From Escherichia coli (GTDB lineage: Bacteria; Pseudomonadota; Gammaproteobacteria; Enterobacterales; Enterobacteriaceae), in the NCBI RefSeq assembly GCF_024700885.2, contig NZ_CP117016.1: a stretch of 64,000 nt of DNA; one strand, written 5' to 3'. How positions within the stretch are numbered: position 1 is the first letter of the stretch; every line of letters starts with the position of its first letter. Both the position numbers and the translations under genes were made by a program. The notes beneath the pieces were generated by a model. The model was given only the letters and a program-made list of their open reading frames with translations, ran no database searches and was not told the origin of the DNA. Below, piece after piece: positions 35,970-51,262 of this stretch.

Positions 35970-36734
35970 ATGAAAGATGAACGTCGCCCTATTTGCGAAG
36001 TGGTTGCAGAGAGTATCGAACGGTTAATTATCGACGGCGTACTGAAGGTCGGTCAGCCGCTTCCCTCGGAACGTCGACTGTGTGAAAAGCTCGGCTTCTC
36101 ACGCTCCGCACTGCGTGAAGGGCTGACCGTGCTGCGCGGGCGCGGGATTATTGAAACAGCGCAGGGTCGCGATTCTCGTGTCGCACGGCTTAATCGGGTG
36201 CAGGACACCAGCCCGCTGATCCATCTGTTCAGTACGCAGCCGCGAACGCTGTATGATCTGCTCGACGTTCGCGCATTACTGGAGGGCGAATCGGCAAGGC
36301 TGGCGGCAACGCTGGGAACCCAGGCTGATTTTGTTGTGATAACCCGCTGTTATGAAAAAATGCTCGCCGCCAGTGAGAACAACAAAGAGATTTCGCTGAT
36401 CGAACATGCGCAGTTGGATCACGCTTTCCATCTCGCCATTTGTCAGGCTTCTCACAATCAGGTGCTGGTGTTTACACTGCAATCATTGACCGACTTGATG
36501 TTTAATTCAGTGTTTGCCAGCGTAAATAATCTCTACCATCGACCACAGCAAAAAAAGCAGATCGATCGCCAGCATGCGCGGATCTACAACGCGGTGTTGC
36601 AGCGGCTGCCGCACGTCGCCCAGCGCGCAGCACGCGATCATGTGCGGACCGTGAAAAAGAATCTCCACGATATCGAGCTGGAAGGTCACCATTTGATTCG
36701 CTCGGCGGTGCCGCTGGAGATGAACCAGAGTTAG
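35970..36734 (+). CDS. glcC: Glycolate operon transcriptional activator (GntR/FadR family)
   Basis: N-terminal winged HTH (RLCEKLGFSRSALREGLTVL); divergent from glcD; start taken at MKDERRPI (about 254 aa). Confidence 0.88.
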   Translation: MKDERRPICEVVAESIERLIIDGVLKVGQPLPSERRLCEKLGFSRSALREGLTVLRGRGIIETAQGRDSRVARLNRVQDTSPLIHLFSTQPRTLYDLLDVRALLEGESARLAATLGTQADFVVITRCYEKMLAASENNKEISLIEHAQLDHAFHLAICQASHNQVLVFTLQSLTDLMFNSVFASVNNLYHRPQQKKQIDRQHARIYNAVLQRLPHVAQRAARDHVRTVKKNLHDIELEGHHLIRSAVPLEMNQS

Positions 36735-36740
36735 CTGGTA

Positions 36741-37883
36741 TTAAATCTGCTTTTCATACAATCGGTAACGCTTGTACGGCTCCGCCCCAATGCGTTCCAG
36801 CATGTTATTCATGCCTGTATTGGTTTCGAGGATCCATGACATTTCCAGCGCATCGATCTTCCGGCGGGCAAACGGATCGCGTAAGGCTTCAATCAATAAC
36901 AGCGCAATCACCGGGCCGATGCGGCTAAACTGATACTCGTCCCGCACGCCCATCAGCGGTACTCGCGCAGTTCGCACACCGCTGACTTTTAAACGCCACA
37001 GCAATTTTGCCCAGCCGAAGGGAAAGAGCGATCCGTTCAGATCGGCAATCGCCTCGTTGATGTTTGGCAAGCCGACAATAAACGCGCAGGGTGCAGAATC
37101 AATCTCAGCGATGTAGATCATATCGTCCGGCACCAGATATTTAAGTTGATCGCCCATGGTCGCGAATTCATGTTCGGTAAACGGCACAAATCCCCAGTTG
37201 TGCTGCCAGCCAGAGTTGAAAATCTCACGCAGGATCTGCATCTCTTCGGCAAACCGCTGGCGATTGATGCAGCGAATGGTCACCTTCTTACGCACCTGAT
37301 CCATCAGTTTTTTTAGCGCCGGAGAGAAAGTGAGATCGGTTCGCTGCATCCACCACGCCAGTAAATCAATGCCTTTGTGATAACCCAATTGTTCAATATG
37401 CGCGGCATACCACGGTTTGCCATGTGGCATCATCGCACAGGGTGGTGTGTCAAAACCTTCAATCAGTAATCCGCTTTCCTGATTGATATTCAGGCTGAAA
37501 GGCCCGCTGATCTTACTTGCACCTTGTGACTTCAACCACGCTTCCGCTGCGCCAAACAACGCGGCAAAAACCTGCGGATCATCAATGGCGTCAATCATGC
37601 CGAAATGACCGGTATCTTCGCCGTAACGCTCACGGTGCAAGGTATCGATTTGCGCGGTAATTCGCCCAACTATCTGCCCGGCTTTTTTTGCCACCCACGC
37701 CTGCCAGATGATATGGTCCGTCCCCGGATTCTTCGTAGACAAATGCTCGCTGCGTTCAATGAATAAAGGGGGTATCCAGTTTGGATCATCGGGATAAAGT
37801 GATGACGGAAAAGCGATAAATGCCTTAAGGTCATTTTTATTAATTACTTTTTCAATTTTAATCATCAGCAGATCGCATTCCAT
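36741..37883 (-). CDS. yghO: YghO-family protein, candidate acyl-CoA N-acyltransferase (GNAT-like fold); possible lipid N-acyltransferase
   Basis: About 375-380 aa soluble protein divergent from the lipid operon; family assignment from memory; function inferred from genomic context only. Confidence 0.5.
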   Translation of the reverse strand: MECDLLMIKIEKVINKNDLKAFIAFPSSLYPDDPNWIPPLFIERSEHLSTKNPGTDHIIWQAWVAKKAGQIVGRITAQIDTLHRERYGEDTGHFGMIDAIDDPQVFAALFGAAEAWLKSQGASKISGPFSLNINQESGLLIEGFDTPPCAMMPHGKPWYAAHIEQLGYHKGIDLLAWWMQRTDLTFSPALKKLMDQVRKKVTIRCINRQRFAEEMQILREIFNSGWQHNWGFVPFTEHEFATMGDQLKYLVPDDMIYIAEIDSAPCAFIVGLPNINEAIADLNGSLFPFGWAKLLWRLKVSGVRTARVPLMGVRDEYQFSRIGPVIALLLIEALRDPFARRKIDALEMSWILETNTGMNNMLERIGAEPYKRYRLYEKQI

Positions 37884-38159
37884 ATCTCTGTGGATAACAA
37901 ATAATTAACGGTGACAAACAGATTGCAACAGCAACGAACGGCACCTTAATAATCAACCCAATGAATACAAACGACGAATAAATAGTATTTATTAATGATT
38001 ACGATAAGGTTAGAGACTACACAGAAGCGCCACAATGCCTTTTGTCGATTTAAGGCGACCGGACAAGGCTTCTTCTTAATATATTCACAAATTAAATATC
38101 ATTCACAATAAAAACAAAAAAACTCAAACTCATTATTTAAATCAATGTTCATTTTCACA

Positions 38160-38227
38160 CTGATGAAAATACTATCTCATTTATCTTTTATGCCTATATA
38201 ATCCACCGCATTATTGTCATTTTATTT
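38160..38227 (+). promoter_or_regulatory. Candidate promoter for the lipid-biosynthesis operon in the AT-rich yghO-divergent intergenic region
   Basis: TATAAT hexamer at about 38197-38202, some 25-55 nt upstream of the candidate start codons; AT-rich upstream tract. Confidence 0.3.
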
Positions 38228-39979
38228 TTGATATCCAATTTTTTCGTGGTGTATATGTCTAATAAAATCTTTACGCATTCCCTACCTATGCGCTATGCCG
38301 ATTTTCCAACGCTGGTTGATGCTTTGGACTACGCCGCTCTGAGTAGCGCCGGAATGAATTTTTATGACAGACGTTGCCAACTTGAAGATCAACTGGAATA
38401 TCAGACGTTAAAAGCGCGTGCCGAAGCTGGTGCGAAGCGGTTGTTATCGCTGAACCTGAAAAAAGGCGATCGCGTGGCGCTGATTGCCGAAACCAGTAGC
38501 GGGTTCGTAGAGGCTTTTTTTTCCTGCCAGTATGCCGGCTTAGTCGCCGTCCCGTTGGCGATTCCAATGGGCGTCGGTCAGCGGGATTCCTGGAGCGCCA
38601 AACTGCAGGGTTTACTGGCAAGTTGCCAGCCCGCAGCCATTATCACTGGTGATGAGTGGTTACCGCTGGTCAATGCCGCGACGCATAACAACAACCCCGA
38701 ATTACATGTTTTAAGCCACGCCTGGTTTAAGACATTACCGGAAGCCGATGTTGCGCTCCAGCGTCCAGTTCCGAACGATATCGCCTACCTCCAGTACACT
38801 TCCGGCAGCACCCGTTTTCCCCGTGGCGTCATTATCACCCATCGCGAAGTGATGGCTAATCTACGTGCTATAAGCCACGATGGCATTAAATTACGCCCTG
38901 GCGACCGCTGCGTCTCCTGGCTGCCTTTCTACCATGATATGGGACTGGTCGGCTTTCTCCTGACCCCCGTCGCCACGCAGCTTTCAGTAGATTATTTGCG
39001 CACTCAGGATTTTGCCATGCGTCCTCTGCAATGGCTTAAATTGATCAGTAAAAATCGCGGCACCGTTTCCGTTGCGCCGCCGTTTGGCTATGAATTGTGC
39101 CAGCGCCGCGTGAATGAAAAAGATCTCGCTGAACTGGATCTTTCCTGCTGGCGCGTCGCTGGTATTGGTGCAGAACCCATCTCCGCAGAACAACTCCATC
39201 AATTCGCTGAATGTTTCCGTCAGGTCAACTTTGACGATAAAACTTTCATGCCGTGCTACGGACTGGCAGAAAATGCGCTGGCTGTCAGCTTCTCTGATGA
39301 AGCTTCCGGGGTTGTGGTTAACGAAGTGGATCGCGACATCCTCGAATATCAGGGCAAAGCCGTCGCGCCGGATGCTGAAACACGCGCCGTATCGACTTTC
39401 GTCAACTGCGGTAAAGCGTTGCCGGAACATGGCATTGAAATCCGCAATGAAGCAGGTATGCCGGTCGCGGAACGTGTGGTAGGCCATATTTGCATCTCCG
39501 GCCCCAGCCTGATGAGCGGTTACTTTGGCGACCAGATTTCACAAGACGAGATTGCCGCGACGGGCTGGTTAGACACCGGCGACCTCGGTTATCTGCTGGA
39601 CGGTTATCTGTATGTCACCGGACGCATTAAAGATCTGATTATTATTCGTGGCCGTAATATCTGGCCGCAGGATATTGAATATATTGCGGAACAGGAACCG
39701 GAAATTCATTCTGGCGATGCGATTGCTTTTGTTACCGCCCAGGAAAAAATCATTTTGCAGATCCAGTGTCGGATCAGCGATGAAGAACGTCGCGGGCAGC
39801 TTATCCACGCGCTGGCAGCACGGATCCAAAGCGAATTTGGCGTGACCGCGGCTATCGATCTGTTGCCGCCCCACAGTATTCCCCGAACGTCCTCCGGCAA
39901 GCCTGCCCGTGCGGAAGCGAAAAAACGTTATCAGAAGGCTTATGCTGCAAGCCTTCATGTGCAGGAATCCCTGGCATGA
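38228..39979 (+). CDS. Fatty acyl-AMP ligase / acyl-ACP synthetase (adenylate-forming enzyme)
   Basis: About 575-583 aa; AMP-binding signature LQYTSGSTRFPRGV; C-terminal lysine region; the true start may be the ATG at 38255. Confidence 0.8.
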   Translation: MISNFFVVYMSNKIFTHSLPMRYADFPTLVDALDYAALSSAGMNFYDRRCQLEDQLEYQTLKARAEAGAKRLLSLNLKKGDRVALIAETSSGFVEAFFSCQYAGLVAVPLAIPMGVGQRDSWSAKLQGLLASCQPAAIITGDEWLPLVNAATHNNNPELHVLSHAWFKTLPEADVALQRPVPNDIAYLQYTSGSTRFPRGVIITHREVMANLRAISHDGIKLRPGDRCVSWLPFYHDMGLVGFLLTPVATQLSVDYLRTQDFAMRPLQWLKLISKNRGTVSVAPPFGYELCQRRVNEKDLAELDLSCWRVAGIGAEPISAEQLHQFAECFRQVNFDDKTFMPCYGLAENALAVSFSDEASGVVVNEVDRDILEYQGKAVAPDAETRAVSTFVNCGKALPEHGIEIRNEAGMPVAERVVGHICISGPSLMSGYFGDQISQDEIAATGWLDTGDLGYLLDGYLYVTGRIKDLIIIRGRNIWPQDIEYIAEQEPEIHSGDAIAFVTAQEKIILQIQCRISDEERRGQLIHALAARIQSEFGVTAAIDLLPPHSIPRTSSGKPARAEAKKRYQKAYAASLHVQESLA

Positions 39980-40890
39980 ATCAAACTGTCGCGGTGACGG
40001 GCGCTACCGGGTTTATCGGTAAATATATTATCGATAACCTGCTCGCCCGCGGCTTTCACGTTCGCGCATTGACGCGTACTGCCCGCGCTCACGTCAATGA
40101 CAATCTCATCTGGGTGCGCGGTTCTCTGGAAGATACTCATTCACTTAGCGAACTGGTTGCCGGAGCCAGCGCGGTGGTCCATTGCGCCGGACAAGTGCGC
40201 GGGCACAAAGAAGAGATTTTTACCCGCTGTAACGTTGACGGCAGCCTGCGACTGATGCAAGCGGCAAAAGAGAGCGGCTTTTGCCAACGTTTTCTGTTTA
40301 TCTCTTCGCTGGCGGCGCGCCATCCCGAACTCTCCTGGTACGCAAATTCCAAACACGTCGCCGAACAACGGCTGACCGCAATGGCTGACGAAATTACGCT
40401 GGGCATTTTTCGCCCGACAGCCGTGTATGGTCCCGGCGATAAAGAGTTAAAACCGCTGTTTGACTGGATGCTGCGCGGCCTACTGCCACGACTTGGTGCG
40501 CCAGATACACAGCTCTCTTTCCTGCACGTCACCGATTTCGCGCAAGCCGTGGGGCAGTGGTTAAGCGCCGAAACTGTACAGACGCAAACCTATGAATTAT
40601 GCGATGGCGTCGCCGGCGGCTATGACTGGCAACGCGTAAGACAGCTTGCCGCCGACGCCCGTTGCGGTTCCGTTCGAATGGTTGGTATTCCTCTGTCGGT
40701 ACTCACCTGCCTTGCGGATATCAGTACTGCGTTGAGTCGCCTGGCAGGTAAAGAACCTATGCTGACCCGCTCGAAAATTCGTGAATTAACCCACGCCGAC
40801 TGGTCGGCAAATAATAACCGTATTTCTGAAGATATTAATTGGTTTCCCGGGATTAGCCTGGAACACGCATTACGCAACGGGCTATTTTGA
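39976..40890 (+). CDS. NAD(P)-dependent epimerase/dehydratase-family reductase (extended SDR), candidate 3-keto reductase
   Basis: 304 aa; Rossmann motif VTGATGFIGKYI; YxxxK catalytic motif (YANSK); start overlaps upstream stop (ATGA). Confidence 0.75.
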   Translation: MNQTVAVTGATGFIGKYIIDNLLARGFHVRALTRTARAHVNDNLIWVRGSLEDTHSLSELVAGASAVVHCAGQVRGHKEEIFTRCNVDGSLRLMQAAKESGFCQRFLFISSLAARHPELSWYANSKHVAEQRLTAMADEITLGIFRPTAVYGPGDKELKPLFDWMLRGLLPRLGAPDTQLSFLHVTDFAQAVGQWLSAETVQTQTYELCDGVAGGYDWQRVRQLAADARCGSVRMVGIPLSVLTCLADISTALSRLAGKEPMLTRSKIRELTHADWSANNNRISEDINWFPGISLEHALRNGLF

Positions 40891-40921
40891 TTGTCTTGTT
40901 TAAAGGTGTGTTAACGTTTCT

Positions 40922-41170
40922 ATGGTAAATCGTGAAATAGTAATGGATTACATCCTTTCCTGTTTACAGGATTTGGTCGAAAACGGTGTGGAAATTAAGC
41001 CCGACAGCGATCTCGTCAACGATCTTGGCCTGGAGTCGATCAAAGTGATGGATCTCTTAATGATGCTGGAAGACAGATTCGATATTTCCATTCCTATTAA
41101 TATTCTGCTGGATGTCAAAACCCCTGCGCAATTAATGGAAACACTACTTCCATGGCTGGAGAATAAATAA
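40922..41170 (+). CDS. Dedicated acyl carrier protein
   Basis: 82 aa acidic protein with the phosphopantetheine attachment motif DLGLESIKVMDL. Confidence 0.75.
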   Translation: MVNREIVMDYILSCLQDLVENGVEIKPDSDLVNDLGLESIKVMDLLMMLEDRFDISIPINILLDVKTPAQLMETLLPWLENK

Positions 41171-42342
41171 TGGGGCTATACGATAAATATGCGCGCCTTG
41201 CTGGCGAGCGACTGCAATTTAGTGACAACGGGTTAACACCGTTTGGCACCTGTATTGATGAAGTGTATTCCGCCACCGAAGGTCGGATTGGCAATAAAAA
41301 AGTGATTCTGGCCGGGACCAATAATTATCTCGGTTTAACCTTTAATCATGATGCCATCGCCGAAGGTCAGGCAGCGTTAGCGGCCCAAGGCACCGGCACC
41401 ACCGGTTCTCGTATGGCAAACGGCAGTTATGCGCCGCATCTGGCGTTAGAGAAAGAGATCGCCGAGTTTTTTAATCGCCCTACCGCTATCGTTTTTTCAA
41501 CCGGTTATACCGCTAATTTAGGCGTCATCAGCGCACTTGCCGACCATAACGCCGTGGTGTTACTGGATGCCGACAGCCACGCCAGTATTTATGACGCCTG
41601 TTCTCTCGGTGGCGCGGAAATTATTCGTTTCCGCCATAACGATGCTAAAGATCTGGAACGGCGCATGGTTCGCCTCGGTGAACGGGCAAAAGAGGCGATT
41701 ATCATCGTTGAAGGCATCTACAGTATGCTCGGTGACGTTGCGCCGCTGGCGGAAATTGTTGATATCAAACGTCGTCTCGGTGGTTATTTGATTGTCGATG
41801 AAGCGCATTCGTTTGGCGTGTTAGGCGCAACGGGGCGCGGACTGGCTGAAGCCGTTGGCGTTGAAGATGATGTGGATATTATCGTTGGTACCTTCAGTAA
41901 AAGTCTGGCCTCGATTGGCGGTTTTGCTGTCGGTTCGGAAGCGATGGAAGTGTTGCGCTACGGCAGCCGCCCGTATATTTTTACCGCCTCTCCTTCTCCG
42001 TCCTGCATTGCGACCGTGCGCTCGTCGTTAAGAACCATTGCCTCACAACCAGAGTTGCGGCAAAAGCTGATGGATAATGCCAACCATCTGTATGACGGTC
42101 TGCAAAAACTGGATTATGAGTTAAGTTCACATATTAGCCCGGTAGTGCCAGTAATAATCGGTTCGAAAGAGGAAGGTTTACGCATCTGGCGCGAGCTTAT
42201 TTCGCTGGGCGTTTATGTGAATCTTATCCTGCCACCTGCCGCGCCTGCAGGCATCACGCTGCTGCGCTGTAGCGTAAACGCTGCCCACAGTCGTGAGCAA
42301 ATTGATGCCATCATTCAAGCGTTCGCTACTCTGAAGCAGTAA
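41170..42342 (+). CDS. PLP-dependent alpha-oxoamine synthase (serine palmitoyltransferase / 8-amino-7-oxononanoate synthase family)
   Basis: 390 aa; PLP-lysine motif GTFSKSLASIGGF and DEAHSFG motif typical of the AOS family; start overlaps the ACP stop. Confidence 0.8.
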   Translation: MGLYDKYARLAGERLQFSDNGLTPFGTCIDEVYSATEGRIGNKKVILAGTNNYLGLTFNHDAIAEGQAALAAQGTGTTGSRMANGSYAPHLALEKEIAEFFNRPTAIVFSTGYTANLGVISALADHNAVVLLDADSHASIYDACSLGGAEIIRFRHNDAKDLERRMVRLGERAKEAIIIVEGIYSMLGDVAPLAEIVDIKRRLGGYLIVDEAHSFGVLGATGRGLAEAVGVEDDVDIIVGTFSKSLASIGGFAVGSEAMEVLRYGSRPYIFTASPSPSCIATVRSSLRTIASQPELRQKLMDNANHLYDGLQKLDYELSSHISPVVPVIIGSKEEGLRIWRELISLGVYVNLILPPAAPAGITLLRCSVNAAHSREQIDAIIQAFATLKQ

Positions 42343-42348
42343 TGTGAG

Positions 42349-42378
42349 CCCGCTGTGGTGTTGCGCCACGGCGGGTTT
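42349..42378 (+). terminator. Rho-independent terminator at the end of the + strand biosynthetic operon, overlapping the 3' end of the convergent permease gene
   Basis: GC-rich inverted repeat cccgctgtgg-N7-ccacggcggg followed by TTT. Confidence 0.55.
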
Positions 42379-43456
42379 AATGTTGTCTGTCATACCAATA
42401 CACCAGGCTCAACGCCACCAGCACAAACGCTACCGGTAAACCGAGCGCGGTAACAGGTGCGCTCAACGCAAATAGCAATCCCAGATTGACCATGATTTGA
42501 TAGCTGATCCAGGTAAGTAAGCCCACGATGACGCCTACAGCGAGACGGCTACCCATCCCAGGCGAACGCGGGGCACTAAAGGTAAACGGCACAGCCAGCA
42601 AAATCATCGCCAGGGTCAGGATGGGTTGTCCCAGTTTTTCCCACAGTGCAAGGCGGTATTCGCTGCTGGGTTGCCCAGTTTCCTGCAAATAATGGATGTA
42701 ATGATTAAGTTGACGGACAGAAAAAGTATTTCCCGGCATCGATAACTCTTCAAGATTCATACTGGTGAAGGCCGATTGCCAGGCAAGATTATCTGATGTT
42801 TCCAGCGTTTCTTTGCCATTCAACCATTTTTTATGATTCACACCATGCAGGATCCATGTTTTGTCGTCTTCAATGGAGGCACTGCGTGCAAAAATGTAGG
42901 ATTCGAGCGAGAGATCGTCGCGATAATGAAATATCTCCACGCCCACAGGCTGGCCCTGCTCGTTCAGCGATTTCACCGTCACAAATTCATTACCGCGCCT
43001 GGCCCAAAGCATATTGCCGGTAATGTCATCGTCCTCCCCCAACGCGGTGGCAGTCGATTTGATTTGCAGCGCCTGTTGCTGCAATGGCGACGCCACCCAC
43101 TCATCTATCGCGCCTAACGAAACAGTCCACAATATCCCGGCAACCAGCGCCACCAGTGCAATACGGAAGATAGAAAACCCAGTGCTGCGAATGGCGGTAA
43201 GCTCACTGTTTTTCGATAACTGCCCCAGGCCAACAATCCCTCCCAATAATGCGATAAACGGCGAAAGTTCGACCAGTGTACGCGGTAAGGTCATCAGCAC
43301 CACCAGCACCGCCTGAGTCCAGCGATAACCGCCCGGGCTGACATCATCCAGTTCGTTAATCAGGTTGAAGGTGGTAAAAAGCGGCAGCAATAGCCCTGCG
43401 GCGGCGGCAAAACCGAGAAAGAGATGACGGATTAAATAGCGACTGAAAACATTCAT
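42377..43456 (-). CDS. LptG-like permease (YjgP/YjgQ family) paralogue
   Basis: About 359 aa from MNVFSRYLIRHLF; six-TM permease architecture with a periplasmic domain, as in LptF/LptG; start overlaps the upstream gene stop (ATGA). Confidence 0.7.
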   Translation of the reverse strand: MNVFSRYLIRHLFLGFAAAAGLLLPLFTTFNLINELDDVSPGGYRWTQAVLVVLMTLPRTLVELSPFIALLGGIVGLGQLSKNSELTAIRSTGFSIFRIALVALVAGILWTVSLGAIDEWVASPLQQQALQIKSTATALGEDDDITGNMLWARRGNEFVTVKSLNEQGQPVGVEIFHYRDDLSLESYIFARSASIEDDKTWILHGVNHKKWLNGKETLETSDNLAWQSAFTSMNLEELSMPGNTFSVRQLNHYIHYLQETGQPSSEYRLALWEKLGQPILTLAMILLAVPFTFSAPRSPGMGSRLAVGVIVGLLTWISYQIMVNLGLLFALSAPVTALGLPVAFVLVALSLVYWYDRQH

Positions 43457-44523
43457 CGGGAAAATTTCTGCAGCAAAGAGAAGTCGCGTGCGACCAGCAT
43501 CAGCAGGCCCATTAGCATGAGTCCGGGTACTAACCACAAACCAGGAATGAGGGGAATCGCGCCGTTAGCCACCAGCGTACGGCAGACGTCGCCGCCATAA
43601 AAAATGGCAATAAACAGCAACGTCAGTGGCAATAATGTTGAAAATCGCCCTTGCCGCGGTTTTACCCGACTTAATGAAATGGCCAGCAGCGCCATCAACA
43701 ATGCTGTCAGGCCACGGCTTTGTCGCCATTGCAGTTCGGCATGATCGGCTGGAAAGACGGAGCGCGCCAGCTCCGTGACCGATTTCGCTTTGCGTTTGAC
43801 GTTAGGGCTTTGATCCAGCGGATTCAGATGTAATTGCAGATTACGGTAGATCTGTTCGTTGTCGTCACGCCCCTGATGATCGAGAAGATAGGCAGTGCCG
43901 TTGTGCAACATAACAGTCGGTTTCTCAGGTGATGGGTCAACCACATCAACCGAACGGGCGCGGAAAATGCGGGTTCGATTGGCAGTAGAAGTATAAATCA
44001 GCGCGTCAGTCAGGCGATTATTATCCTGATCAACCGTCTGCGAAAGGATCATTCGTCCGTTATCGTTAGTGTTAAATTTCTTTGCCCGCAACTGGCGAAC
44101 ATCCAGCTCCGACTGTGACTGTTGCTCCAGTTGATAAATCTGCGCATAAGCCCACGGACGACCATACATCGACAGAAGGGTGACAAAAATACTTAGCGGT
44201 ATCGCCAGATAAAGAACGGCTTTGTACAAGCGTCCCGGACTGCCCCCCGCCGCGGAGATAGCGGTAATTTCCGAGTCGGTATACATTTGCCCTAGCGTCA
44301 CGCCAACTGAAGCATATAGTCCAACAGGTAACAGCATCTCCAGTGCAATCAGCACTTTGTAGAAAACGATATCCAGCACAACATCAAGAGCTAATGTCCC
44401 ATTTGCCGCTTCGGTCAGATAACGCTGTGCGGAGTAGCTGGCGAAAATAAAGATCAGAAACCCGACGATAATCAGCACCAGACGGCGCGTACCACGCATG
44501 ATGTAGTGTTCAACCAGCTTCAT
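43453..44523 (-). CDS. LptF-like permease (YjgP/YjgQ family) paralogue
   Basis: 356 aa; N-terminus MKLVEHYIMRGTRRLVLIIVGFLIF resembles LptF/LptG N-termini; paired with the downstream LptG-like gene. Confidence 0.7.
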   Translation of the reverse strand: MKLVEHYIMRGTRRLVLIIVGFLIFIFASYSAQRYLTEAANGTLALDVVLDIVFYKVLIALEMLLPVGLYASVGVTLGQMYTDSEITAISAAGGSPGRLYKAVLYLAIPLSIFVTLLSMYGRPWAYAQIYQLEQQSQSELDVRQLRAKKFNTNDNGRMILSQTVDQDNNRLTDALIYTSTANRTRIFRARSVDVVDPSPEKPTVMLHNGTAYLLDHQGRDDNEQIYRNLQLHLNPLDQSPNVKRKAKSVTELARSVFPADHAELQWRQSRGLTALLMALLAISLSRVKPRQGRFSTLLPLTLLFIAIFYGGDVCRTLVANGAIPLIPGLWLVPGLMLMGLLMLVARDFSLLQKFSR

Positions 44524-44553
44524 CTCGCTAACGCCCTAAATCCTTTGAATTTT

Positions 44554-45117
44554 TTATTCATTGATCAGTTTCTGCGCCAGCGCAATGACATGATCTACCT
44601 CTTCCGGCGTCAGGCTGCCGTCCTTTGCCCACTGAATTTGCCCGTCTTTATTCAGCACCAGAATGGTTGAACTCTGCTCCGGCAACCGCCAGGCAACGCG
44701 TCCCAGTCCATTGCCGTCAATAACGAATTGCGCCCACGGATAGCGGCGTTTATTTTTTTCGATTTTGCCAACGACAAAATAGCCAGTACCAAAGATGGCA
44801 TCATCGGTGTTCACAATGGTGGTGGGCTGAAAACGATCCTGCGGAAAGTTTGCCGCTTCAACCGCTTTAATTAACAGTGAGTTCTTTTTCTTCGCCGACT
44901 TACGCCCGGCGATATACTGAATAATGCGGACTTTTCCCGCCAGCTGTGTGCTGTTCCACTTTTGGTAGTGAATTTCGTCGTCGCTATTCAGAAGCAACTC
45001 ACCGCCTTCCTGGATATAAACAGGGGTAACCGTTTTGCCAGTGACGAAATTGTGTGCCTGCACACCCGGGGCTAAGAGCATGATAATCAGCGCAATAATC
45101 AAACGAGATGACATCAT
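44554..45117 (-). CDS. Periplasmic protein with signal peptide (possibly YtfJ-like family)
   Basis: 187 aa; cleavable signal MMSSRLIIALIIMLLAPGVQA; family assignment tentative. Confidence 0.5.
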   Translation of the reverse strand: MMSSRLIIALIIMLLAPGVQAHNFVTGKTVTPVYIQEGGELLLNSDDEIHYQKWNSTQLAGKVRIIQYIAGRKSAKKKNSLLIKAVEAANFPQDRFQPTTIVNTDDAIFGTGYFVVGKIEKNKRRYPWAQFVIDGNGLGRVAWRLPEQSSTILVLNKDGQIQWAKDGSLTPEEVDHVIALAQKLINE

Positions 45118-45125
45118 TGCTCCGG

Positions 45126-45950
45126 TTATAGCGGAAAACGCGAAATCAGCAGCTCTAAGCGCTGGCGAATATCGCTATCCAGCGCCACCGGTGCATCATA
45201 CGACTGGCGGTTTTCCATATCATCCGCCACCATGTCGTCGTGTTTATCCCCCATCAGGCCATTAATGGCGGCGAGGAAGCGGGAAATCTGTAACGCTTCT
45301 TTATTTTCAGGATCAAGCGATCTTAAGGTGTCGTAATAAGAAACCTGCTGGCTGATGATTTTTCGCACATCATGAAATTCCCTGCCGGTTAGTCGCGGTT
45401 TGGCAATTATCTCTTTCAGGGTATGCATTTGCTTTTGCCGATAGGCAATAAAACCGCTTACGCTTTCTAACTGGCTATGGCGTAATGAATAGTTCACCAA
45501 CGACCAGACCGGAGAGCTTAAATAAACCCGTAACAGGTTGCCGTAATACGACACAATATTTTTCTTACCGTTACGAAAGCCGTCCTGAAAACGCCCCAAA
45601 AAAACGGTCGTTTTGCCGAATAAAAATCCGGCCTGATGCTTCTTTAAATACAGCCGTTGCGCAAAGCGCAGATGCTTGTAGCGCGCTCGCATGTATTTAT
45701 ACTTTTTGCGCTCGTCTGTCGTCAGTTCATCGCCTTTCGCCTGTTTGCGGATTAAACGCAGTAGCTCCTGACGATTAACACCATCCAGCCAGAATTTCAG
45801 GCATAACGCGTAATTATCATGGATGATTTCGGTGGTACAACTTAGTGCGATAGTCGGCGGCAAACTGACCTGTGCATCAACGACATCATCTTCTTCAATC
45901 GCAACAAATAGACGCTCGCTAGCCTCAAGCGGGAAATATTTTCTCATCAT
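45126..45950 (-). CDS. Hypothetical cytoplasmic protein, basic and Lys/Arg-rich
   Basis: 274-aa ORF tightly packed between the flippase gene and the periplasmic protein gene; no motif recognised by eye. Confidence 0.5.
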   Translation of the reverse strand: MMRKYFPLEASERLFVAIEEDDVVDAQVSLPPTIALSCTTEIIHDNYALCLKFWLDGVNRQELLRLIRKQAKGDELTTDERKKYKYMRARYKHLRFAQRLYLKKHQAGFLFGKTTVFLGRFQDGFRNGKKNIVSYYGNLLRVYLSSPVWSLVNYSLRHSQLESVSGFIAYRQKQMHTLKEIIAKPRLTGREFHDVRKIISQQVSYYDTLRSLDPENKEALQISRFLAAINGLMGDKHDDMVADDMENRQSYDAPVALDSDIRQRLELLISRFPL

Positions 45951-47299
45951 CAGGATTTCTCTCCGGCTGCGTTATAAAGCAAGGAATGGCGCTGAAAAAA
46001 TGCCTTTAAGGTTGGAATTAGCGAGAGCACCACATCCAGACATTGCCCAGCGAAGTAAGCAAATGCAGCCCCCAGCACGCCAAACAGATGACAGAACATG
46101 AACAGCAATACGATGTAGCCGATTGAGGCGATGGTTTGCGCCACGAGAAAAGCACGCTGTTTTCCCGCCATCAATAGCAATGACTCCTGTGGGAAGCCCA
46201 GCATTGAAATCACAATTGCGCCTAGCATCACCTGAATCAGGTCATACGCTTCGAGATACTTAACGCCAAACACCAGCGAAATGAGTGGCTTGCCGACGAT
46301 CAACACCACGAGCGCCACCAGAATACCGATTCCGCCCGCCAGTAAACCGGACTTCACGCCTAACAACCACGGCCTGGTGGTGCGCGGATCTAAACGCATC
46401 ACCTCTGGGTAAAAACTTTTACCCAGCAAACCCGCTGGCGTTCCGGCGGCGTCGAAGAATGTCATGGCGATTTTAAATAACCCGGCGGCAGCGGGTCCTA
46501 ACACGATCCCCACCAACACTGTGCTGCACGAGTTACGCGCCGACCAGATGGAGTGGGCAATGTTGGTTGACCAGACAAAACTCCACGCGCCTTTAATGTG
46601 TCGGGCAGACTCAAACAGATTCAATTTGAAGGCGTTATGGATATTTCTGCGGCGTAATTCGCGCGCGGCAAACCACCAGTACATGGTGCCGCCAACCAGA
46701 TTCGATGCGTACCAGGCAATAACAAAACCCGCAAAACCAAAATCAAAATACCAGGCTACGACGCTCCCCGCTGCGCGCAGAAAAGGTTTCGTCGCCTGCT
46801 GTACAGCAATCAAATCGAAGCGATCTACCGCACGCAGAATGCCGGTCGGCGTGGAGGAAGCCATTGAAGGAATGAGCGTGCAATACAGCGCTGCCAGCCA
46901 AAAGCTTTGGTCATCCAGACCTAATGAATGGGAAAGAAAAGGGAGTAAGGCAATGCCGCCGACAATCGCCACCGCGCCGCTGACGATATCCAGCGAGAAG
47001 GAAAATGAGACGACATTGCGGAATTGCTGCGGATTATTGTTGGTTAATGCTGGTGTTCCGTACTGCACCACCAACTGCCATGTCTGAAACTTAATAAAAT
47101 CGCTGATCGACTTGGCGTACGATTGCACAATCACCAGTACGCCAAACATGGCGGGCGTCATCCCTTTACCGGCACACGAGAGCGCCAACAGACCTAGCAA
47201 GGCGCTCACGACATTACTGGAGCCTAACCAGGCGCTATTGCGAATAATGGTGCGAAACGCGCCATCTGCAAACCAATGTTTGATGTTAAAACCCGCCAA
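45950..47299 (-). CDS. yghQ: MOP-superfamily (Wzx-like) polytopic flippase/exporter
   Basis: 449-aa ORF, highly hydrophobic with many predicted TM helices; I recall the K-12 counterpart as yghQ; start codon uncertain. Confidence 0.65.
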   Translation of the reverse strand: MAGFNIKHWFADGAFRTIIRNSAWLGSSNVVSALLGLLALSCAGKGMTPAMFGVLVIVQSYAKSISDFIKFQTWQLVVQYGTPALTNNNPQQFRNVVSFSFSLDIVSGAVAIVGGIALLPFLSHSLGLDDQSFWLAALYCTLIPSMASSTPTGILRAVDRFDLIAVQQATKPFLRAAGSVVAWYFDFGFAGFVIAWYASNLVGGTMYWWFAARELRRRNIHNAFKLNLFESARHIKGAWSFVWSTNIAHSIWSARNSCSTVLVGIVLGPAAAGLFKIAMTFFDAAGTPAGLLGKSFYPEVMRLDPRTTRPWLLGVKSGLLAGGIGILVALVVLIVGKPLISLVFGVKYLEAYDLIQVMLGAIVISMLGFPQESLLLMAGKQRAFLVAQTIASIGYIVLLFMFCHLFGVLGAAFAYFAGQCLDVVLSLIPTLKAFFQRHSLLYNAAGEKS

Positions 47300-47344
47300 T
47301 TCAGCCTGACCTTATCGTTGATAGTAAAAAGTATCCCGCCAGCC

Positions 47345-48103
47345 TTAAGTTAAACTTCGGCGGTCAGAAACGATGGCAACCAGAGAAACCGCCTTCTGTG
47401 CCTGTTCCAGCACTTCGCTGTAGGGCGCTCTGGAATCAATCTCAAGAATTTTTGTGCCGTTATAGCCAATCGTCGACATGACGCCGATTTTGTCCTGCAG
47501 CTCGGCATAGTCATGGTCAGGCTTGCGGGAGATGGCAGTATCAATATCAATCCCCAAACGAATGATTAATTCAGGACGGTATTGCGCCATTTTTTGGTAT
47601 AAACGCCGTTCGCGCTGCGCCAGAAACATGCTGATTTTCCCGGTCGCACGTTCGACGCCGATCCCCGGTCCGTCATAATAAAAGCCCGAAATTTCAGCCT
47701 GCGGGAAGCGATCGCTGACCACCAGAACGCCACTTTGCGCCAGTCGCTGAACCTTGCGTAGATTCGCCATTCTTCGCAGCGAGAAGCAGTACATAATCAC
47801 CGCCGCCCATAGCGCTGGAGATTTGGTTTTCATGCTTTGGGTTTTCGAGGATTTGGCCGCCAGTCGCCGTTCGAGCCAGACGCCAACCAACGGCAATCGT
47901 TTGATTGTGTCGCCGTCTTCGCCCGAGAGCAGCCCCAGATAGCGCCGCTCGGTTTGCCAGTGTTGTTGCAGCGATTTCACCAGGTCGGTGGTCAGTGTGG
48001 ATTTACCGGTGCCATCACACCCGACCACCGCAATCAGCCCCGGAATGTAGTTGGGCTGCGGCACGGTTGTACTATTAACAGTTTGTGTTTGTAGTGCATC
48101 CAT
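47345..48103 (-). CDS. yghR: P-loop NTPase, kinase-like (YghR/S/T family)
   Basis: 252 aa; N-proximal Walker A VVGCDGTGKST; DRF motif; no ABC signature motif seen. Confidence 0.7.
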   Translation of the reverse strand: MDALQTQTVNSTTVPQPNYIPGLIAVVGCDGTGKSTLTTDLVKSLQQHWQTERRYLGLLSGEDGDTIKRLPLVGVWLERRLAAKSSKTQSMKTKSPALWAAVIMYCFSLRRMANLRKVQRLAQSGVLVVSDRFPQAEISGFYYDGPGIGVERATGKISMFLAQRERRLYQKMAQYRPELIIRLGIDIDTAISRKPDHDYAELQDKIGVMSTIGYNGTKILEIDSRAPYSEVLEQAQKAVSLVAIVSDRRSLT

Positions 48104-48134
48104 TCGTTAAATCATCCCCTATCCATTTTGGTGA

Positions 48135-48848
48135 TCAGGAAAGCACGGCGTGAATTGCGCGTAGTGACGCTTGCATAATTTCATCGGCTGGTTGCCGACC
48201 ATCCAGTTCAAGGATCTTTGCGCCATTGAATGTCAGTTGCGGCGTAACGGCGATTTTTTCCTGTAACGCTGCCAGTTGGTGGTCAGGTTTACGCGAAAAC
48301 GCGGTTTGTTCATCAATGCCAAGACGAATCAACAATACGGGCAAATAAGACGCCATCCATTGGTACAGCTTCAGCTCGCGCTGCCTTAACATTTTTATCC
48401 AACCGTTACCGCCCGTGGTTTTTGCCAATTGCGGGCCATCAAAGCGAAAACCCGGCACTTCAACCTGCGGGTAGCGGTCGGTGATGAGCAGATAGCCTTG
48501 CTGGCTTTTACACAACATTTTGCGAAACTTATACGCCCGCCAGCAGGAAAGCAGATAGATAACCAGCGCAGTAATATTGCCAGGCGGTGTTGAGGGCTTT
48601 TCGTGCACATGTGCCGCTTTACTTCGCAGATAACGCCCAAAAGGTGCGCCAATAACAGGGAGCTGTGAAATCCATTCGCCAATTCGCCCGGACGATTGCC
48701 CGAGATAAATGTGTTCTGTTGGCATTCTTGCTGCCAGTTCATTTACCAGGCTTGCCGTGAGGGTCGATTTACCTGAACCATCACATCCTACAATGGCAAT
48801 AACACGCACTGGCGTGGAATTAATTATTGACATATTACGTTGATTCAC
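48135..48848 (-). CDS. yghS: P-loop NTPase, kinase-like (YghR/S/T family paralogue)
   Basis: 237 aa; Walker A IVGCDGSGKST; DRYP motif; same architecture as yghR. Confidence 0.7.
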   Translation of the reverse strand: MNQRNMSIINSTPVRVIAIVGCDGSGKSTLTASLVNELAARMPTEHIYLGQSSGRIGEWISQLPVIGAPFGRYLRSKAAHVHEKPSTPPGNITALVIYLLSCWRAYKFRKMLCKSQQGYLLITDRYPQVEVPGFRFDGPQLAKTTGGNGWIKMLRQRELKLYQWMASYLPVLLIRLGIDEQTAFSRKPDHQLAALQEKIAVTPQLTFNGAKILELDGRQPADEIMQASLRAIHAVLS

Positions 48849-49021
48849 GAAAAACCCGGCAGCAAATAATGTATTGAATATTACGTGGTCCGTGCTCAGA
48901 ATATCCGTTCAACCTTATTGTGACAATGGTTAATTGTGACATTGACCTGAATTACGCTTTCATAAAAACATATTAACCAAATAAATATTTTTAATGGATA
49001 TTCAAATTAAAGGATATATTC

Positions 49022-49714
49022 ATGCAGTCAATAACACCTCCATTAATTGCCGTTATTGGTAGCGATGGTTCAGGCAAGTCAACGGTGTGTGAACATCTCA
49101 TTACCGTTGTCGAAAAATATGGTGCTGCCGAAAGAGTTCATTTAGGAAAACAAGCCGGAAATGTCGGTCGTGCAGTGACAAAATTACCGTTGATGGGAAA
49201 ATCCTTACATAAAACAATTGAACGAAATCAGGTGAAAACAGCAAAAAAATTGCCTGGCCCTGTTCCGGCGCTGGTAATTACAGCGTTTGTCGCCCGTCGC
49301 TTACTGCGCTTTCGTCATATGCTTGCCTGTCGTCGTCGCGGGTTAATTGTTCTAACCGACCGTTATCCTCAGGACCAAATTCCTGGCGCTTACGATGGTA
49401 CAGTGTTCCCACCTAACGTTGAAGGCGGCCGGTTTGTCTCATGGCTGGCAAGCCAGGAACGTAAAGCATTTCACTGGATGGCGAGCCATAAGCCTGATCT
49501 GGTCATCAAACTCAATGTTGACCTTGAAGTTGCCTGCGCGCGTAAACCCGACCATAAACGGGAATCGCTGGCGAGGAAGATTGCAATAACGCCACAGTTA
49601 ACCTTTGGTGGTGCACAACTGGTTGATATCGATGCCAATCAGCCACTGGAAAAGGTGCTGGTTGATGCAGAAAAAGCGATTACGGATTTTATGACCGCGC
49701 GTGGTTATCACTAG
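49022..49714 (+). CDS. yghT: P-loop NTPase, kinase-like (YghR/S/T family paralogue)
   Basis: 230 aa; Walker [16 protein letters not shown] motif; divergent from yghS. Confidence 0.7.
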
Positions 49715-49727
49715 CCAAAAATGGAAA

Positions 49728-49754
49728 TGCCCGATCGCCAGGACCGGGCATTTT
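49728..49754. terminator. Bidirectional stem-loop terminator between convergent yghT and pitB
   Basis: tgcccg-N11-cgggca followed by TTTT on + and by a T-rich tract on -. Confidence 0.5.
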
Positions 49755-49762
49755 CAGGAAGG

Positions 49763-51262
49763 TTAAATCAACTGCAATGCTATCCAGTACAACCCACCAG
49801 ACAGAAAAATCGCCGCTGGTAAAGTAAACACCCACGCCATCAGGATGCTGGTTACCGTTTTACGCTGTAACCCACCGCCGTCCACCACCATCGTCCCTGC
49901 TACCGCAGATGAGAGGACGTGTGTTGTGGAAACAGGCATCCCAATATAACTGGCAAGGCCGATAGATACCGCCGCCGTCATCTGCGCCGCCATCCCTTGC
50001 GCATACGTCATGCCGCGCTTACCAATCTTCTCACCGATGGTCATCGCTACACGACGCCAGCCAATCATGGTGCCAATGCCGAGCGCCAGTGCTACCGCCA
50101 TGATGATCCACACCGGAGCGTACTCAATGGTGCTTAACATATCGCTGCGCAATTTTTTCAGCAGGTTCTGATCTTCTTTACTGACACCTGGCAGTTTCGC
50201 CAGCTTCGCAGAGGTATCAGAGATGCACAGCATAATGCGGCGCAGCTGGCTGCGCTGACTCACGCTTAACGGCTCGTAGCTTTCCATATTACCTGGCAAC
50301 ATCGTTTTAACGCGCGCAATCGCATCAAAGGTATTTGCCGGATGACAATGAAACTCCGTTACTTGCGTGCCATCAGTCGATGCCGCAGGCAATGGAGGTT
50401 CCATCGCAATCAACTTCTGCGGCAGTTCAGGATGCTGTTGCAGATAGTGTTCAAAGTTGGTGACGGCATCGCGAGTACGGGTAATTTCATAGCCGGACGC
50501 ATTCATATTGACGACGAAACCAGCAGGGGCAATCCCCACCAGTACCAACATCACCAGGCCGATCCCTTTCTGCCCGTCGTTCGCGCCGTGCGAAAACGCC
50601 ACGCCCGCAGCGGAAACAATCAGCGCAATACGCGTCCAGAATGGTGGCTTACGTTTGCCTTTTTTCTTTTTGCGATCTTCCGGAATGCGGTGAATACGGT
50701 CACGCTTTTTCGTCCCGCTCCAGTAGCGGCGCAGCAGGAATATCAGGCCTCCCGCAATGACCAGGCCGACGATAGGGGAAACAATCAGCGAGGAGAAAAT
50801 TTTGGTCACTTCACGCAGGTTTAACGCATCCATCACCGATGAGCCGGTTAACAGCGCGTTGGTTAAACCGATGCCGATAATCGCACCAATCAAGGTATGC
50901 GAACTGGAGGCCGGTAAACCAAAGAACCACGTTCCCAGGTTCCAGATAATCGCCGCCAGCAGCATGGAAAAGACCATCGCCAGGCCGTGAGTTGACCCCA
51001 TATTCAGCAACAAATCGGTTGGCAACATATGGACAATGGCATAGGCAACGCTAAGTCCGCCTAGCAATACGCCAAAAAAGTTAAAAAATGCCGCCATCAC
51101 CACGGCAAGCTGTGGCTGCATGGCACGAGTATAAATAACGGTTGCCACCGCATTCGCCGTGTCATGAAAACCATTGATTGCTTCGTAGAACAACACAAAT
51201 GCCAGAGCAAGTAATAACAAAAGCCCTGTGTATATATCAAGGCCAACAAATAAATTTAGCAT
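49763..51262 (-). CDS. pitB: Low-affinity inorganic phosphate transporter (PiT family)
   Basis: 499 aa polytopic PHO4-family transporter; position next to gss. Confidence 0.88.

Follow-up and report, generated by a model that had tools for sequence, protein, structure and literature searches.

Does Escherichia coli, described in textbooks as lacking sphingolipids, encode a pathway that makes such a lipid and exports it? The question is raised by the genes between glcC and pitB (36741–49714) in a window of 64,000 nucleotides, i.e. the whole stretch of E. coli DNA that was analysed. The locus holds 13 intact genes, identified as open reading frames and in agreement with RefSeq, which was checked on annotated E. 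coli chromosomes 100% identical to the window (Table 1). The first-pass annotation had read the region as an unstudied island of twelve lipid-pathway genes. The co-location stands, since it recurs across genera, but the count was one short: the gene for a 274-aa CHAD-fold protein had been missed. Nor is the locus rare or sporadic, as an island would be. Of 5426 complete E. coli genomes, 4067 (about 75%) match at least 80% of the biosynthetic operon, at 95–99% DNA identity, and the GC content of the locus (47–53%) is near that of its flanks. It is not unstudied either. A 2022 study dealt with it in strain BL21(DE3) (Padilla-Gomez et al. 2022, PMC9386255), the alpha-oxoamine synthase gene is called 'spt' in RefSeq, and Fig. 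2B of a 2026 preprint sets the loci of E. coli and Caulobacter side by side (bioRxiv 10.64898/2026.04.12.717747). Our reading, which we consider quite probable, is that E. coli has here its own form of the proteobacterial sphingolipid locus, making a ceramide-type lipid and delivering it to the outer membrane. The identity of the locus and of its core enzymes is thus already known, with core activity shown in 2022 (PMC9386255). What we add is purifying selection on all 13 genes, their conservation in at least 11 genera, the distinct head-group genes and the recurrence of these as a module.

Table 1. Features of the locus, in positions of the 64,000-nucleotide window.
Feature	Position	Strand	Basis
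yghO: 380 aa, homologue of bCerS-type ceramide synthase (N-acyltransferase)	36741..37883	-	ORF, homology; RefSeq 'protein YghO'
yghO/aasR divergent spacer, presumed promoters	37884..38254		position only
aasR: fatty acyl-AMP ligase for dedicated ACP	38255..39979	+	NF006624, identity to BL21(DE3) AasR
cerR/epi-like NAD(P)-dependent epimerase/dehydratase-family reductase	39976..40890	+	sub-threshold family matches, locus position
acpR: dedicated acyl carrier protein, 82 aa	40922..41170	+	ACP family matches, identity to BL21(DE3) AcpR
spt: serine palmitoyltransferase	41170..42342	+	NF047599, conserved catalytic residues
spt/lptG2 hairpin, 16-bp stem, between convergent genes; candidate terminator	42345..42379		consensus match
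lptG2: second LptG-like permease	42377..43456	-	TIGR04408
lptF2: second LptF-like permease	43453..44523	-	TIGR04407
ytfJ-like periplasmic protein, signal-peptide-like N-terminal segment	44554..45117	-	TIGR01626
'Ybl138': divergent CHAD-fold protein, 274 aa, pI 9.4	45126..45950	-	fold
yghQ: MOP/Wzx-type flippase, 449 aa	45950..47299	-	weak MOP flippase matches, orthologues beside spt
yghR: thymidylate-kinase-fold P-loop kinase, paralogue 1	47345..48103	-	fold, motifs, 1:1 orthologues
yghS: thymidylate-kinase-fold P-loop kinase, paralogue 2	48135..48848	-	paralogy with yghR
yghT: thymidylate-kinase-fold P-loop kinase, paralogue 3, divergent transcription	49022..49714	+	fold, motifs, orthologues
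yghT/pitB hairpin, 12 pairs, between convergent genes; terminator-like	49725..49753		consensus match

The stop codon of acpR overlaps the start of spt, and lptF2 and lptG2 overlap by 4 nt. The spacer equivalent to that between yghO and aasR is between 271 and 909 bp long in different Enterobacterales, and promoter-like matches within it in the window are not commoner than in shuffled sequence. Promoter and terminator scans showed no enrichment over shuffles except for the two long hairpins between convergent genes, of which the one between spt and lptG2 is likely, from its sequence, to be a bidirectional terminator of both. Rfam gave no RNA element in positions 36000–50500, the yghO/aasR spacer included. 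Several RefSeq names are probably misleading, i.e. 'LPS export permease LptF/LptG', 'dTMP kinase' and, in K-12, 'DNA-binding transcriptional regulator YghO'.

The alpha-oxoamine synthase had been proposed to be serine-palmitoyltransferase-like, and it scores 595.8 bits against the serine palmitoyltransferase equivalog NF047599 (cut-off 500). Clustering with BioF or Kbl had been named beforehand as the observation that would speak against this, and the protein falls short of both of their equivalogs: the scores were 333 bits for BioF (cut-off 426) and 294 for Kbl (cut-off 460), about 90–170 bits short. Among known structures, Sphingomonas SPT scores 372 bits, against 184–199 for Kbl (184 for that of E. 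coli) and about 177 for E. coli BioF. The protein is 47% identical to the S. paucimobilis enzyme, and K265, H159, D231, H234 and R390 are all identical in the alignment. The acyl-ACP synthetase-like ligase and the dedicated ACP of the first-pass annotation were also recovered. The former is a fatty acyl-AMP ligase (NF006624, 871.5 bits, cut-off 600). The latter matches ACP families, carries the motif DLGLESI and is encoded directly upstream of spt, so that a small ACP and a fatty acyl-AMP ligase accompany spt as expected of a dedicated AcpR/AasR pair.

These proteins have close counterparts of demonstrated activity. The BL21(DE3) genes ECD_02850–ECD_02854 (yghO/aca, aasR, epi, acpR, spt) represent this locus in another strain, and their proteins are 96–100% identical to those of the window: 99.0% for Spt, 97.9% for AasR and 100% for AcpR. 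In that strain AasR, AcpR and Spt together yield 3-oxo-sphinganine; Spt was assayed with [14C]serine and its product seen on TLC, with acyl-AcpR preferred, and AcpR carries 4'-phosphopantetheine and labels with beta-alanine (PMC9386255). The study covered five genes under over-expression, and the eight genes from lptG2 to yghT and the native product lay outside its scope. Extracts of BL21(DE3) with an empty vector, in which the native locus is present, contained no 3-oxo-sphinganine (PMC9386255). Native expression is therefore low or conditional, and expression of the locus is probably confined to particular conditions.

The two remaining core genes were assigned by homology and position. The epimerase-family reductase has only sub-threshold matches to SDR and epimerase families in profile searches and no visible signal peptide. 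Its N-terminus (VTGATGFIG) has the Rossmann GxxGxxG pattern, and its place between aasR and acpR is kept in at least 60 loci. It is 32–47% identical to counterparts in spt loci outside Enterobacterales, and only 32% to that of Caulobacter. These are the features of a CerR-type enzyme and suggest that it reduces the ceramide, as had been proposed; it was entered as epi (ECD_02852) in the BL21(DE3) study, and yghO as aca, a homologue of the ceramide N-acyltransferase (bCerS) gene CC_1154 (PMC9386255). YghO had no sequence match in Pfam, NCBIfam or the PDB. It nevertheless shares 42–53% identity with spt-locus genes from many phyla: 42–43% (312 bits) with the gene that follows lptG2, in the bCerS position, in two Caulobacter loci (L078/L079), and 46–53% in other spt loci. 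Hence, the idea that YghO is bCerS-like gained ground, and its homology and linkage to spt point to N-acylation as its putative role.

The arrangement of these genes is not peculiar to the window. The full set of 13 occurs gene for gene in at least 11 named genera of Enterobacterales, with 51–88% protein identity, and Nitrospira, Geobacter, Methylotenera and Caulobacter share the five-gene core. Across 80 spt loci the five core genes lie together, in many cases accompanied by LptF2/G2. Searching proteins with Spt gave only close enterobacterial relatives, so the comparison with Caulobacter was made by scanning genome contigs. Because the set and its core recur so widely, the co-location of the 13 genes is not due to chance. 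All 13 are under purifying selection, with dN/dS values of 0.03–0.13, similar to those of the flanking genes glcC and pitB. The statement that K-12 carries only remnants was correct: the whole stretch between the 5' end of yghO and the 5' part of yghQ has been replaced there by IS5LO/insH9. This IS5-associated deletion removed eight genes and left the yghQ' remnant, yghR, yghS and yghT.

The best-described relative is the Caulobacter crescentus locus CC_1152–CC_1168 (ccna_01212–01226; PMC11324152, bioRxiv 10.64898/2026.04.12.717747). It shares eight genes with that of E. coli: aasR, cerR/epi, acpR, spt, bCerS, lptF2, lptG2 and the MOP flippase gene. The LptF/LptG-like pair and Wzx-like flippase of the first-pass annotation therefore have counterparts there. 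Caulobacter makes ceramide (di)phosphoglycerate, for which it uses CpgB (a ceramide kinase of the DAG-kinase type), a Tam41-like protein, a CDP-alcohol transferase, a phosphoesterase and two nucleotidyltransferases; it also has LptC2. E. coli lacks all of these, and in place of CpgABC it has a trio of P-loop kinases along with proteins of CHAD fold and YtfJ type.

LptG2 (TIGR04408, 304.7 bits) and LptF2 (TIGR04407, 316.9 bits) match the LptG and LptF family models over their full length, like the LptB2FG extractor of LPS, but are only 28% and 29% identical to the housekeeping LptG and LptF, and their presumed cargo is a sphingolipid rather than LPS. LptG2 homologues adjoin spt in many lineages. 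The annotation shows no ABC ATPase gene within the locus, as in Caulobacter, which shares LptB. There, LptG2 binds LptF2 and LptB, and lptF2/G2 can be deleted only in the absence of spt (bioRxiv 10.64898/2026.04.12.717747). A second LptF/LptG pair that sits in an spt locus, differs from the housekeeping one and brings no ATPase gene suggests by analogy a sphingolipid exporter. The periplasmic protein noticed downstream proved to be YtfJ-like (TIGR01626, 215 bits), with the N-terminus MMSSRLIIALIIMLLAPGVQA; it had no relative in the PDB search, and its gene is present only in Enterobacterales versions of the locus.

YghR, YghS and YghT had been described as P-loop kinase-like paralogues. This holds, YghS being 42% and YghT 34% identical to YghR with a common Walker A motif (GxDGxGKST), but their unrelatedness to the known bacterial ceramide kinase had been missed. 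We rejected them as homologues of CpgB: that enzyme is of the LCB5/DAG-kinase type, with a DAGK catalytic domain and GGDG motif, whereas the trio has the P-loop thymidylate kinase fold and the locus contains no DAGK_cat gene. Their fold is closest to that of thymidylate and deoxynucleoside kinases. However, they score only 31.5, 24.7 and 25.4 bits against the dTMP kinase model TIGR00041 (cut-off 83.25), differ from that family by a conserved insert of about 60 residues (YLG..SG..G..I..LPLIG) at the would-be nucleotide acceptor site, and sit in a lipid rather than a nucleotide gene context. Of the 23 members of each paralogue group, 22–23 keep the Walker A, DR[YF]P and RKPDH motifs. YghR has 1:1 orthologues in 22 spt loci, and the trio has 1:1:1 orthologues beside spt in Rhodocyclaceae, Methylotenera, Luteibacter and Dyella. 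Hence, they are three anciently diverged paralogues of the thymidylate kinase fold. There are also kinase-kinase and flippase-kinase fusions, the flippase being of the MOP type, and wider relatives are fused to a GT4 glycosyltransferase; because of the latter, a sugar or other acceptor is possible. YghQ has weak MOP flippase matches and is 27% identical to the flippase of the Caulobacter loci, and its orthologues in Luteibacter and Dyella, 64–65% identical, follow spt.

The 274-aa protein is not a fourth kinase, an idea that we rejected since a Walker A motif is absent and the modelled structure consists of helices only. The modelled helical bundle corresponds to a divergent CHAD fold, an assignment that rests on the fold: the Pfam CHAD model PF05235 matches none of 15 family members. 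One distant homologue (P0372) carries a precomputed PF05235 match. CHAD domains are polyphosphate-binding modules (e.g. Ricinus CHAD 6QV5, PptA 6RN5 and E. coli YgiF 5A61). The protein is basic (pI 9.4), with invariant His, Arg and Lys residues. It differs from known CHAD domains in standing alone, with no CYTH partner, and in that its gene always has those of a MOP flippase and P-loop kinases as neighbours. A CHAD-like domain in the N-terminal half of kinase relatives of about 500 aa, by which these would join kinase and CHAD-like protein in one chain, was also considered and rejected, as neither the A3 profile nor Pfam gave a match.

Kinases, YghQ-type flippase and CHAD-like protein form a putative head-group module that recurs beside spt in Beta- and Gammaproteobacteria. 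It stands as an operon of its own (kinase-kinase-flippase-CHAD-like) in Zymomonas mobilis, Sphingomonas qilianensis and Gluconobacter japonicus, and in loci L086/L087 the same operon includes a yghO-like gene. Its spread covers Enterobacterales, Betaproteobacteria, Rhodanobacteraceae, Zymomonas, Sphingomonas and Acetobacteraceae. We found no earlier description of it, no function assigned to YghR, YghS, YghT, YghQ or the CHAD-fold gene in the searched literature that mentions them, and nothing relevant in a search for CHAD domains and sphingolipids.

These observations suggest the following pathway. AasR would adenylate a fatty acid and load it on AcpR, and Spt would condense acyl-AcpR with L-serine to 3-oxo-sphinganine, as do the 98–100% identical proteins tested elsewhere. 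By homology to the Caulobacter genes, YghO would add the N-acyl chain, the CerR-type reductase would reduce the 3-oxo group, the MOP flippase would carry the lipid across the inner membrane, and LptF2/LptG2 would extract it toward the outer membrane, powered by the housekeeping LptB. Fold and gene association suggest YghR, YghS and YghT as kinases of the lipid or its head group, the basic CHAD-fold protein as a binder of the anionic, phosphate-rich group that they would produce, and YghQ as the flippase of the phosphorylated form; these steps would replace the CpgABC route of Caulobacter. The YtfJ-like protein may be an accessory specific to Enterobacterales. More speculatively, and with considerable doubt, the module might act on sphingolipids by stepwise phosphorylation of ceramide to a pyro- or polyphosphate, which the CHAD-like protein would recognise and YghQ would flip. 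Other MOP flippases handle lipid-pyrophosphate carriers, which is the basis of this analogy.

Could the locus instead be a cryptic relic, whose enzymes work when over-expressed while E. coli makes no sphingolipid and gains no fitness from it? The empty-vector extracts are consistent with this, and we found no report of a sphingolipid from wild-type E. coli in the searchable literature. K-12 grows well after the loss of eight genes, and about a quarter of complete genomes are without the biosynthetic operon. However, all 13 frames are intact, with dN/dS as low as in neighbouring housekeeping genes, at least 11 named genera keep the complete set, and three quarters of complete genomes retain it, all of which makes a relic unlikely. 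We give still less credence to a synthase of the BioF, Kbl, CqsA or cysteate-acyltransferase type, with another amino-lipid or a non-lipid as the product of the cluster. A common fold unites these enzymes, all of which are found among the lower-scoring matches, and Arg378 of the S. paucimobilis SPT is replaced by Leu in the window. Yet this position is hydrophobic in 81 of 81 Spt of ACP-linked loci, Caulobacter included, and with the equivalog passed, the shortfalls for BioF and Kbl, and an SPT-structure score twice theirs, such an enzyme is hardly credible.

The genes beyond the core might also have another purpose. The seven-gene minus-strand operon and yghT could serve LPS or polysaccharide biogenesis and lie beside ceramide genes by chance. 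The PGAP names (LptF, LptG, 'lipopolysaccharide biosynthesis protein', 'dTMP kinase'), the scores of LptF2/G2 above the TIGR equivalog cut-offs and the GT4 fusion of distant kinase relatives would fit. This is very improbable given the low identity of LptF2 and LptG2 to the true LptF and LptG, kinase scores far under the dTMP kinase cut-off, and the dependence of lptF2/G2 deletion on spt in Caulobacter; moreover, the kinases, flippase, CHAD-like gene and LptF2/G2 recur beside spt or bCerS-like genes in unrelated lineages. Equally small is the chance that YghR, YghS and YghT do not act on lipids and are nucleotide kinases or part of a linked defence or stress system. Their nearest folds are those of nucleotide kinases, and they persist in K-12 after the ceramide genes were lost. 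But PADLOC gave no real match and thus no relation to defence systems, one relative has a MOP flippase as its fusion partner, and the kinases always lie beside such a flippase and lipid genes (spt, bCerS-like, LptF/G, PEMT, PAP2, DAGK_cat, CDP-OH-P transferase).

We thus return to the sphingolipid locus as the best explanation. Despite the textbook view, about 75% of complete E. coli genomes carry an intact and selected locus of this kind, which is already in the literature. For work in K-12 there is a practical side: this strain has lost the pathway and still has the yghQ' remnant, yghR, yghS and yghT. In Caulobacter, polymyxin targets anionic sphingolipids, which stand in for lipid A. For this reason the native lipid and the roles of the five accessory genes matter for outer-membrane biology, and they also bear on the host interaction of gut and urinary-tract strains. 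If the pyro- or polyphosphate reading is true, E. coli would be able to make an unseen class of anionic phosphosphingolipids.

Thirteen intact genes make up the locus, which is flanked by glcC and pitB. The first-pass annotation counted 12 and overlooked the gene for a 274-aa protein with a divergent CHAD fold. Gene order and product names are those that RefSeq gives for E. coli chromosomes with 100% identity. The ceramide-like synthesis and export island proposed in the first-pass annotation is confirmed as an observation, and its interpretation is supported by what follows.

Features of the sphingolipid locus and of related segments (positions in the window unless a contig is named)
Feature	Position	Strand	Remark
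Whole locus	36741-49714		bounded by glcC and pitB
yghO		-	
yghO-aasR divergent spacer	37884-38254		271 to 909 bp among Enterobacterales
Operon of fatty acyl-AMP ligase, epimerase/dehydratase-family reductase, acyl carrier protein and spt		+	
spt	41170-42342	+	
Convergent run, from the far end: yghS, yghR, yghQ, 274-aa hypothetical, ytfJ-like, lptF-like, lptG-like		-	
lptF-like/lptG-like pair	42377-44523	-	
Gene of the 274-aa CHAD-like protein	45126-45950	-	
yghS and yghT	48135-49714		
yghT			divergent from yghS
Long hairpins	42345-42379 and 49725-49753		one between the genes of each of two convergent pairs
pitB	49763-51262		phosphate transporter gene
K-12 yghO region	L002 5044-7341		equivalent of window 36741-47299
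Kinase neighbourhood with mixed head-group genes	L085 1097-9016		
Pseudomonas veronii CHAD-like neighbourhood	L092 2983-11566		

The alpha-oxoamine synthase is of the Spt type. It scored 595.8 bits on the NCBIfam serine palmitoyltransferase equivalog NF047599 (cut-off 500) and remained below the equivalog cut-offs of BioF (333 vs 426) and Kbl (294 vs 460). Among solved structures, Sphingomonas paucimobilis SPT gave 372 bits at 47% identity, against 184 for E. coli Kbl and ~177 for BioF, and K265, H159, D231, H234 and R390 (S. paucimobilis numbering) are kept. Hence, clustering with BioF or Kbl, which the first-pass annotation had named as the outcome that would overturn its reading, is ruled out. 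R378 of the S. paucimobilis enzyme is a leucine here, and the position is hydrophobic in 81/81 Spt collected from ACP-linked loci, Caulobacter included. In Sphingomonas SPT, R378 is the PPATP-loop arginine that touches the serine carboxylate, and the two groups of Spt may therefore hold the substrate differently. The ligase and the permease pair proposed from the sequence fit as well. The ligase (AasR) matched the fatty acyl-AMP ligase model with 871.5 bits, and the permease pair matched TIGR04407 (LptF-like) and TIGR04408 (LptG-like). The two share just 29% (LptF) and 28% (LptG) identity with their housekeeping counterparts, and their RefSeq/PGAP name 'LPS export ABC transporter permease LptF/LptG' probably misleads, even though the TIGR equivalog cut-offs are passed.

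We searched all 13 proteins in the 80 loci returned by a scan of genome contigs with an Spt alignment. The complete set was found at 51-88% protein identity in Pseudocitrobacter, Hafnia, a Serratia sp., Shimwellia, Mangrovibacter, Citrobacter youngae, Pluralibacter, Cedecea and Rosenbergiella, where it frequently adjoins pitB, and was only partly kept in Erwinia and Tatumella. The adjacency to pitB, seen in Pseudocitrobacter, Hafnia, C. youngae and Pluralibacter (L004, L005, L006, L015, L016) and likewise in the E. coli window, may be plain synteny or hint at a link with phosphate. The five-gene core (yghO, aasR, cerR, acpR and spt) extends to Nitrospira, Geobacter, Methylotenera, many Gammaproteobacteria and Caulobacter. 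LptF2/G2-like pairs are close to spt in many of the 80 loci, among which the ytfJ-like gene is confined to Enterobacterales. YghO had no sequence match in Pfam, NCBIfam or PDB. In Caulobacter loci, a gene 42-43% identical to it lies immediately after lptG2, at the position of bCerS (CC_1154), consistent with the bCerS-like function suggested for YghO. A search of the yghO-aasR spacer against Rfam gave no match.

Much of this core has been described, and the earlier statement that the locus is unstudied does not hold. Genes ECD_02850-02854 of BL21(DE3), whose products share 96-100% identity with the window proteins (AcpR 100%, Spt 99.0%, AasR 97.9%), were studied by Padilla-Gomez et al. 2022 (PMC9386255). 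AcpR incorporated beta-alanine, and thus carries 4'-phosphopantetheine; AasR was shown by experiment to load AcpR, and Spt to form 3-oxo-sphinganine, favouring acyl-AcpR over acyl-CoA in a [14C]serine assay. The same study listed yghO and the epimerase gene as homologues of the Caulobacter N-acyltransferase and reductase. Extracts of empty-vector BL21(DE3) formed no 3-oxo-sphinganine (PMC9386255), which suggests that native expression is low. The Caulobacter locus CC_1152-CC_1168 also includes LptF2, LptG2, LptC2 and a MOP flippase (PMC11324152). A 2026 preprint reported that LptF2 and LptG2 form a complex and bind LptB, and that their genes tolerate deletion only when spt is absent; it also drew the E. 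coli UTI89 operons next to those of Caulobacter and S. wittichii (Fig. 2B, 10.64898/2026.04.12.717747). The finding as first stated is thus correct and already known.

The earlier statement that K-12 carries only remnants of the region proved accurate. In MG1655, IS5LO (insH9) replaces the segment from the 5' end of yghO through the 5' part of yghQ, leaving yghR, yghS, yghT and a yghQ truncated from 449 to 355 aa. K-12 yghO, whose 5' end overlaps IS5LO, is annotated as 'putative DNA-binding transcriptional regulator'; homology points to a bCerS-type N-acyltransferase. Many SNVs in yghQ have been reported from chlorhexidine-adapted K-12, along with a 2-fold higher MIC of the Keio yghQ deletion (PMC8170033), although the gene is truncated beside IS5 in that strain. 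The signal may stem from faulty read mapping close to the IS element, or the remnant may truly have an effect. Of 5426 complete genomes of the species, 4067 cover at least 80% of the biosynthetic operon, and 4821 contain some part of the region. The GC content (47-53%) is near that of the flanks. Relative to one divergent Escherichia strain (dS 0.1-0.6), dN/dS is 0.03-0.13 for all 13 genes (flanking glcC 0.055, pitB 0.018), which argues against a decaying relic.

YghR, YghS and YghT are paralogues, as proposed, with YghS and YghT 42% and 34% identical to YghR. All three score far under the dTMP kinase cut-off (25 bits vs 83 for YghS and YghT), and the RefSeq/PGAP name 'dTMP kinase' of the latter two is probably misleading. 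Separate orthologues of each were recovered from 22 loci (208-533 bits, against 143-220 bits to the other paralogues), and the trio adjoins spt in one Rhodocyclaceae genome, Methylotenera, Luteibacter and Dyella. These patterns indicate an old triplication of which all three copies were kept. The Walker A, DR[YF]P and RKPDH motifs occur in 22-23 of the 23 members of each group. In contrast, the head-group kinase of Caulobacter, CpgB, is of the DAG-kinase/LCB5 type (PMC10331486) and is absent from the E. coli locus, as are the Caulobacter Tam41-like protein, CDP-alcohol transferase, phosphoesterase and nucleotidyltransferases. The searched literature that mentions yghR, yghS and yghT assigned them no function, and the sphingolipid literature consulted discussed neither the kinases nor the CHAD-like gene.

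A kinase profile search returned 274 representatives at E ≤1e-30. Representatives P0121, P0122, P0124, P0203, P0264 and P0164-P0270 include a large class of ~500-aa proteins, whose N-terminal ~260 aa carry the motif GETDxDLLVD and had no match in a Pfam search, and fusions: YghS-like with YghR-like in tandem, MOP flippase-kinase and GT4-kinase. We inspected the contexts of divergent kinases and CHAD-like homologues. An operon of two kinases, a YghQ-type flippase and a CHAD-like protein occurs in Zymomonas mobilis (L083), Gluconobacter japonicus (L094) and Sphingomonas qilianensis (L093, beside DAGK_cat and a nucleotidyltransferase), and is headed by a yghO-like gene in two metagenomic contigs (L086, L087). 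The taxa bearing this module are sphingolipid producers. Published work confirms production in Zymomonas and, at genus level, in Sphingomonas and Gluconobacter (PMC9386255, PMC11324152). On L085, Caulobacter-type and E. coli-type head-group genes are mixed: the kinase adjoins a PEMT-like methyltransferase, His_Phos_1, PAP2, an LptF/LptG pair, a CDP-alcohol transferase and DAGK_cat. PEMT is also beside the kinase in L084 and L088. In P. veronii (L092), a Tn7-like transposon (TnsA/TnsB/TniB/TniQ) adjoins a CHAD-like homologue with its 242-aa neighbour, and a genuine PF05235 CHAD protein is encoded at a distance of 6 kb. In some lineages, the module may be mobile.

The pathway would begin with the steps established by others, in which AasR charges AcpR and Spt produces 3-oxo-sphinganine. 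By homology to tested Caulobacter genes, YghO would N-acylate this product, the epimerase-family reductase would reduce the 3-oxo group, the MOP flippase would flip the lipid, and LptF2/G2 would extract it with LptB. Our own addition concerns the head group. That the lipid is phosphorylated seems to us about as likely as not. Less probable are the specifics: phosphorylation in the cytoplasm by YghR, YghS and YghT, binding of the phosphate-rich product by the CHAD-fold protein, and its flipping by YghQ. The group that thymidylate kinases phosphorylate is itself a phosphomonoester, and CHAD domains bind polyphosphate; by analogy, the head group may be a pyro- or polyphosphate. A literature search retrieved no link between CHAD domains and sphingolipids. 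The kinase acceptor might instead be a sugar, a possibility raised by the GT4-kinase fusion. The putative head-group part (YghR/S/T, the CHAD-like protein and YghQ) is the portion that we did not find described in the literature, the core being already published. The interest of the locus is modest, and rests on the native lipid and on the kinase/CHAD/flippase module.
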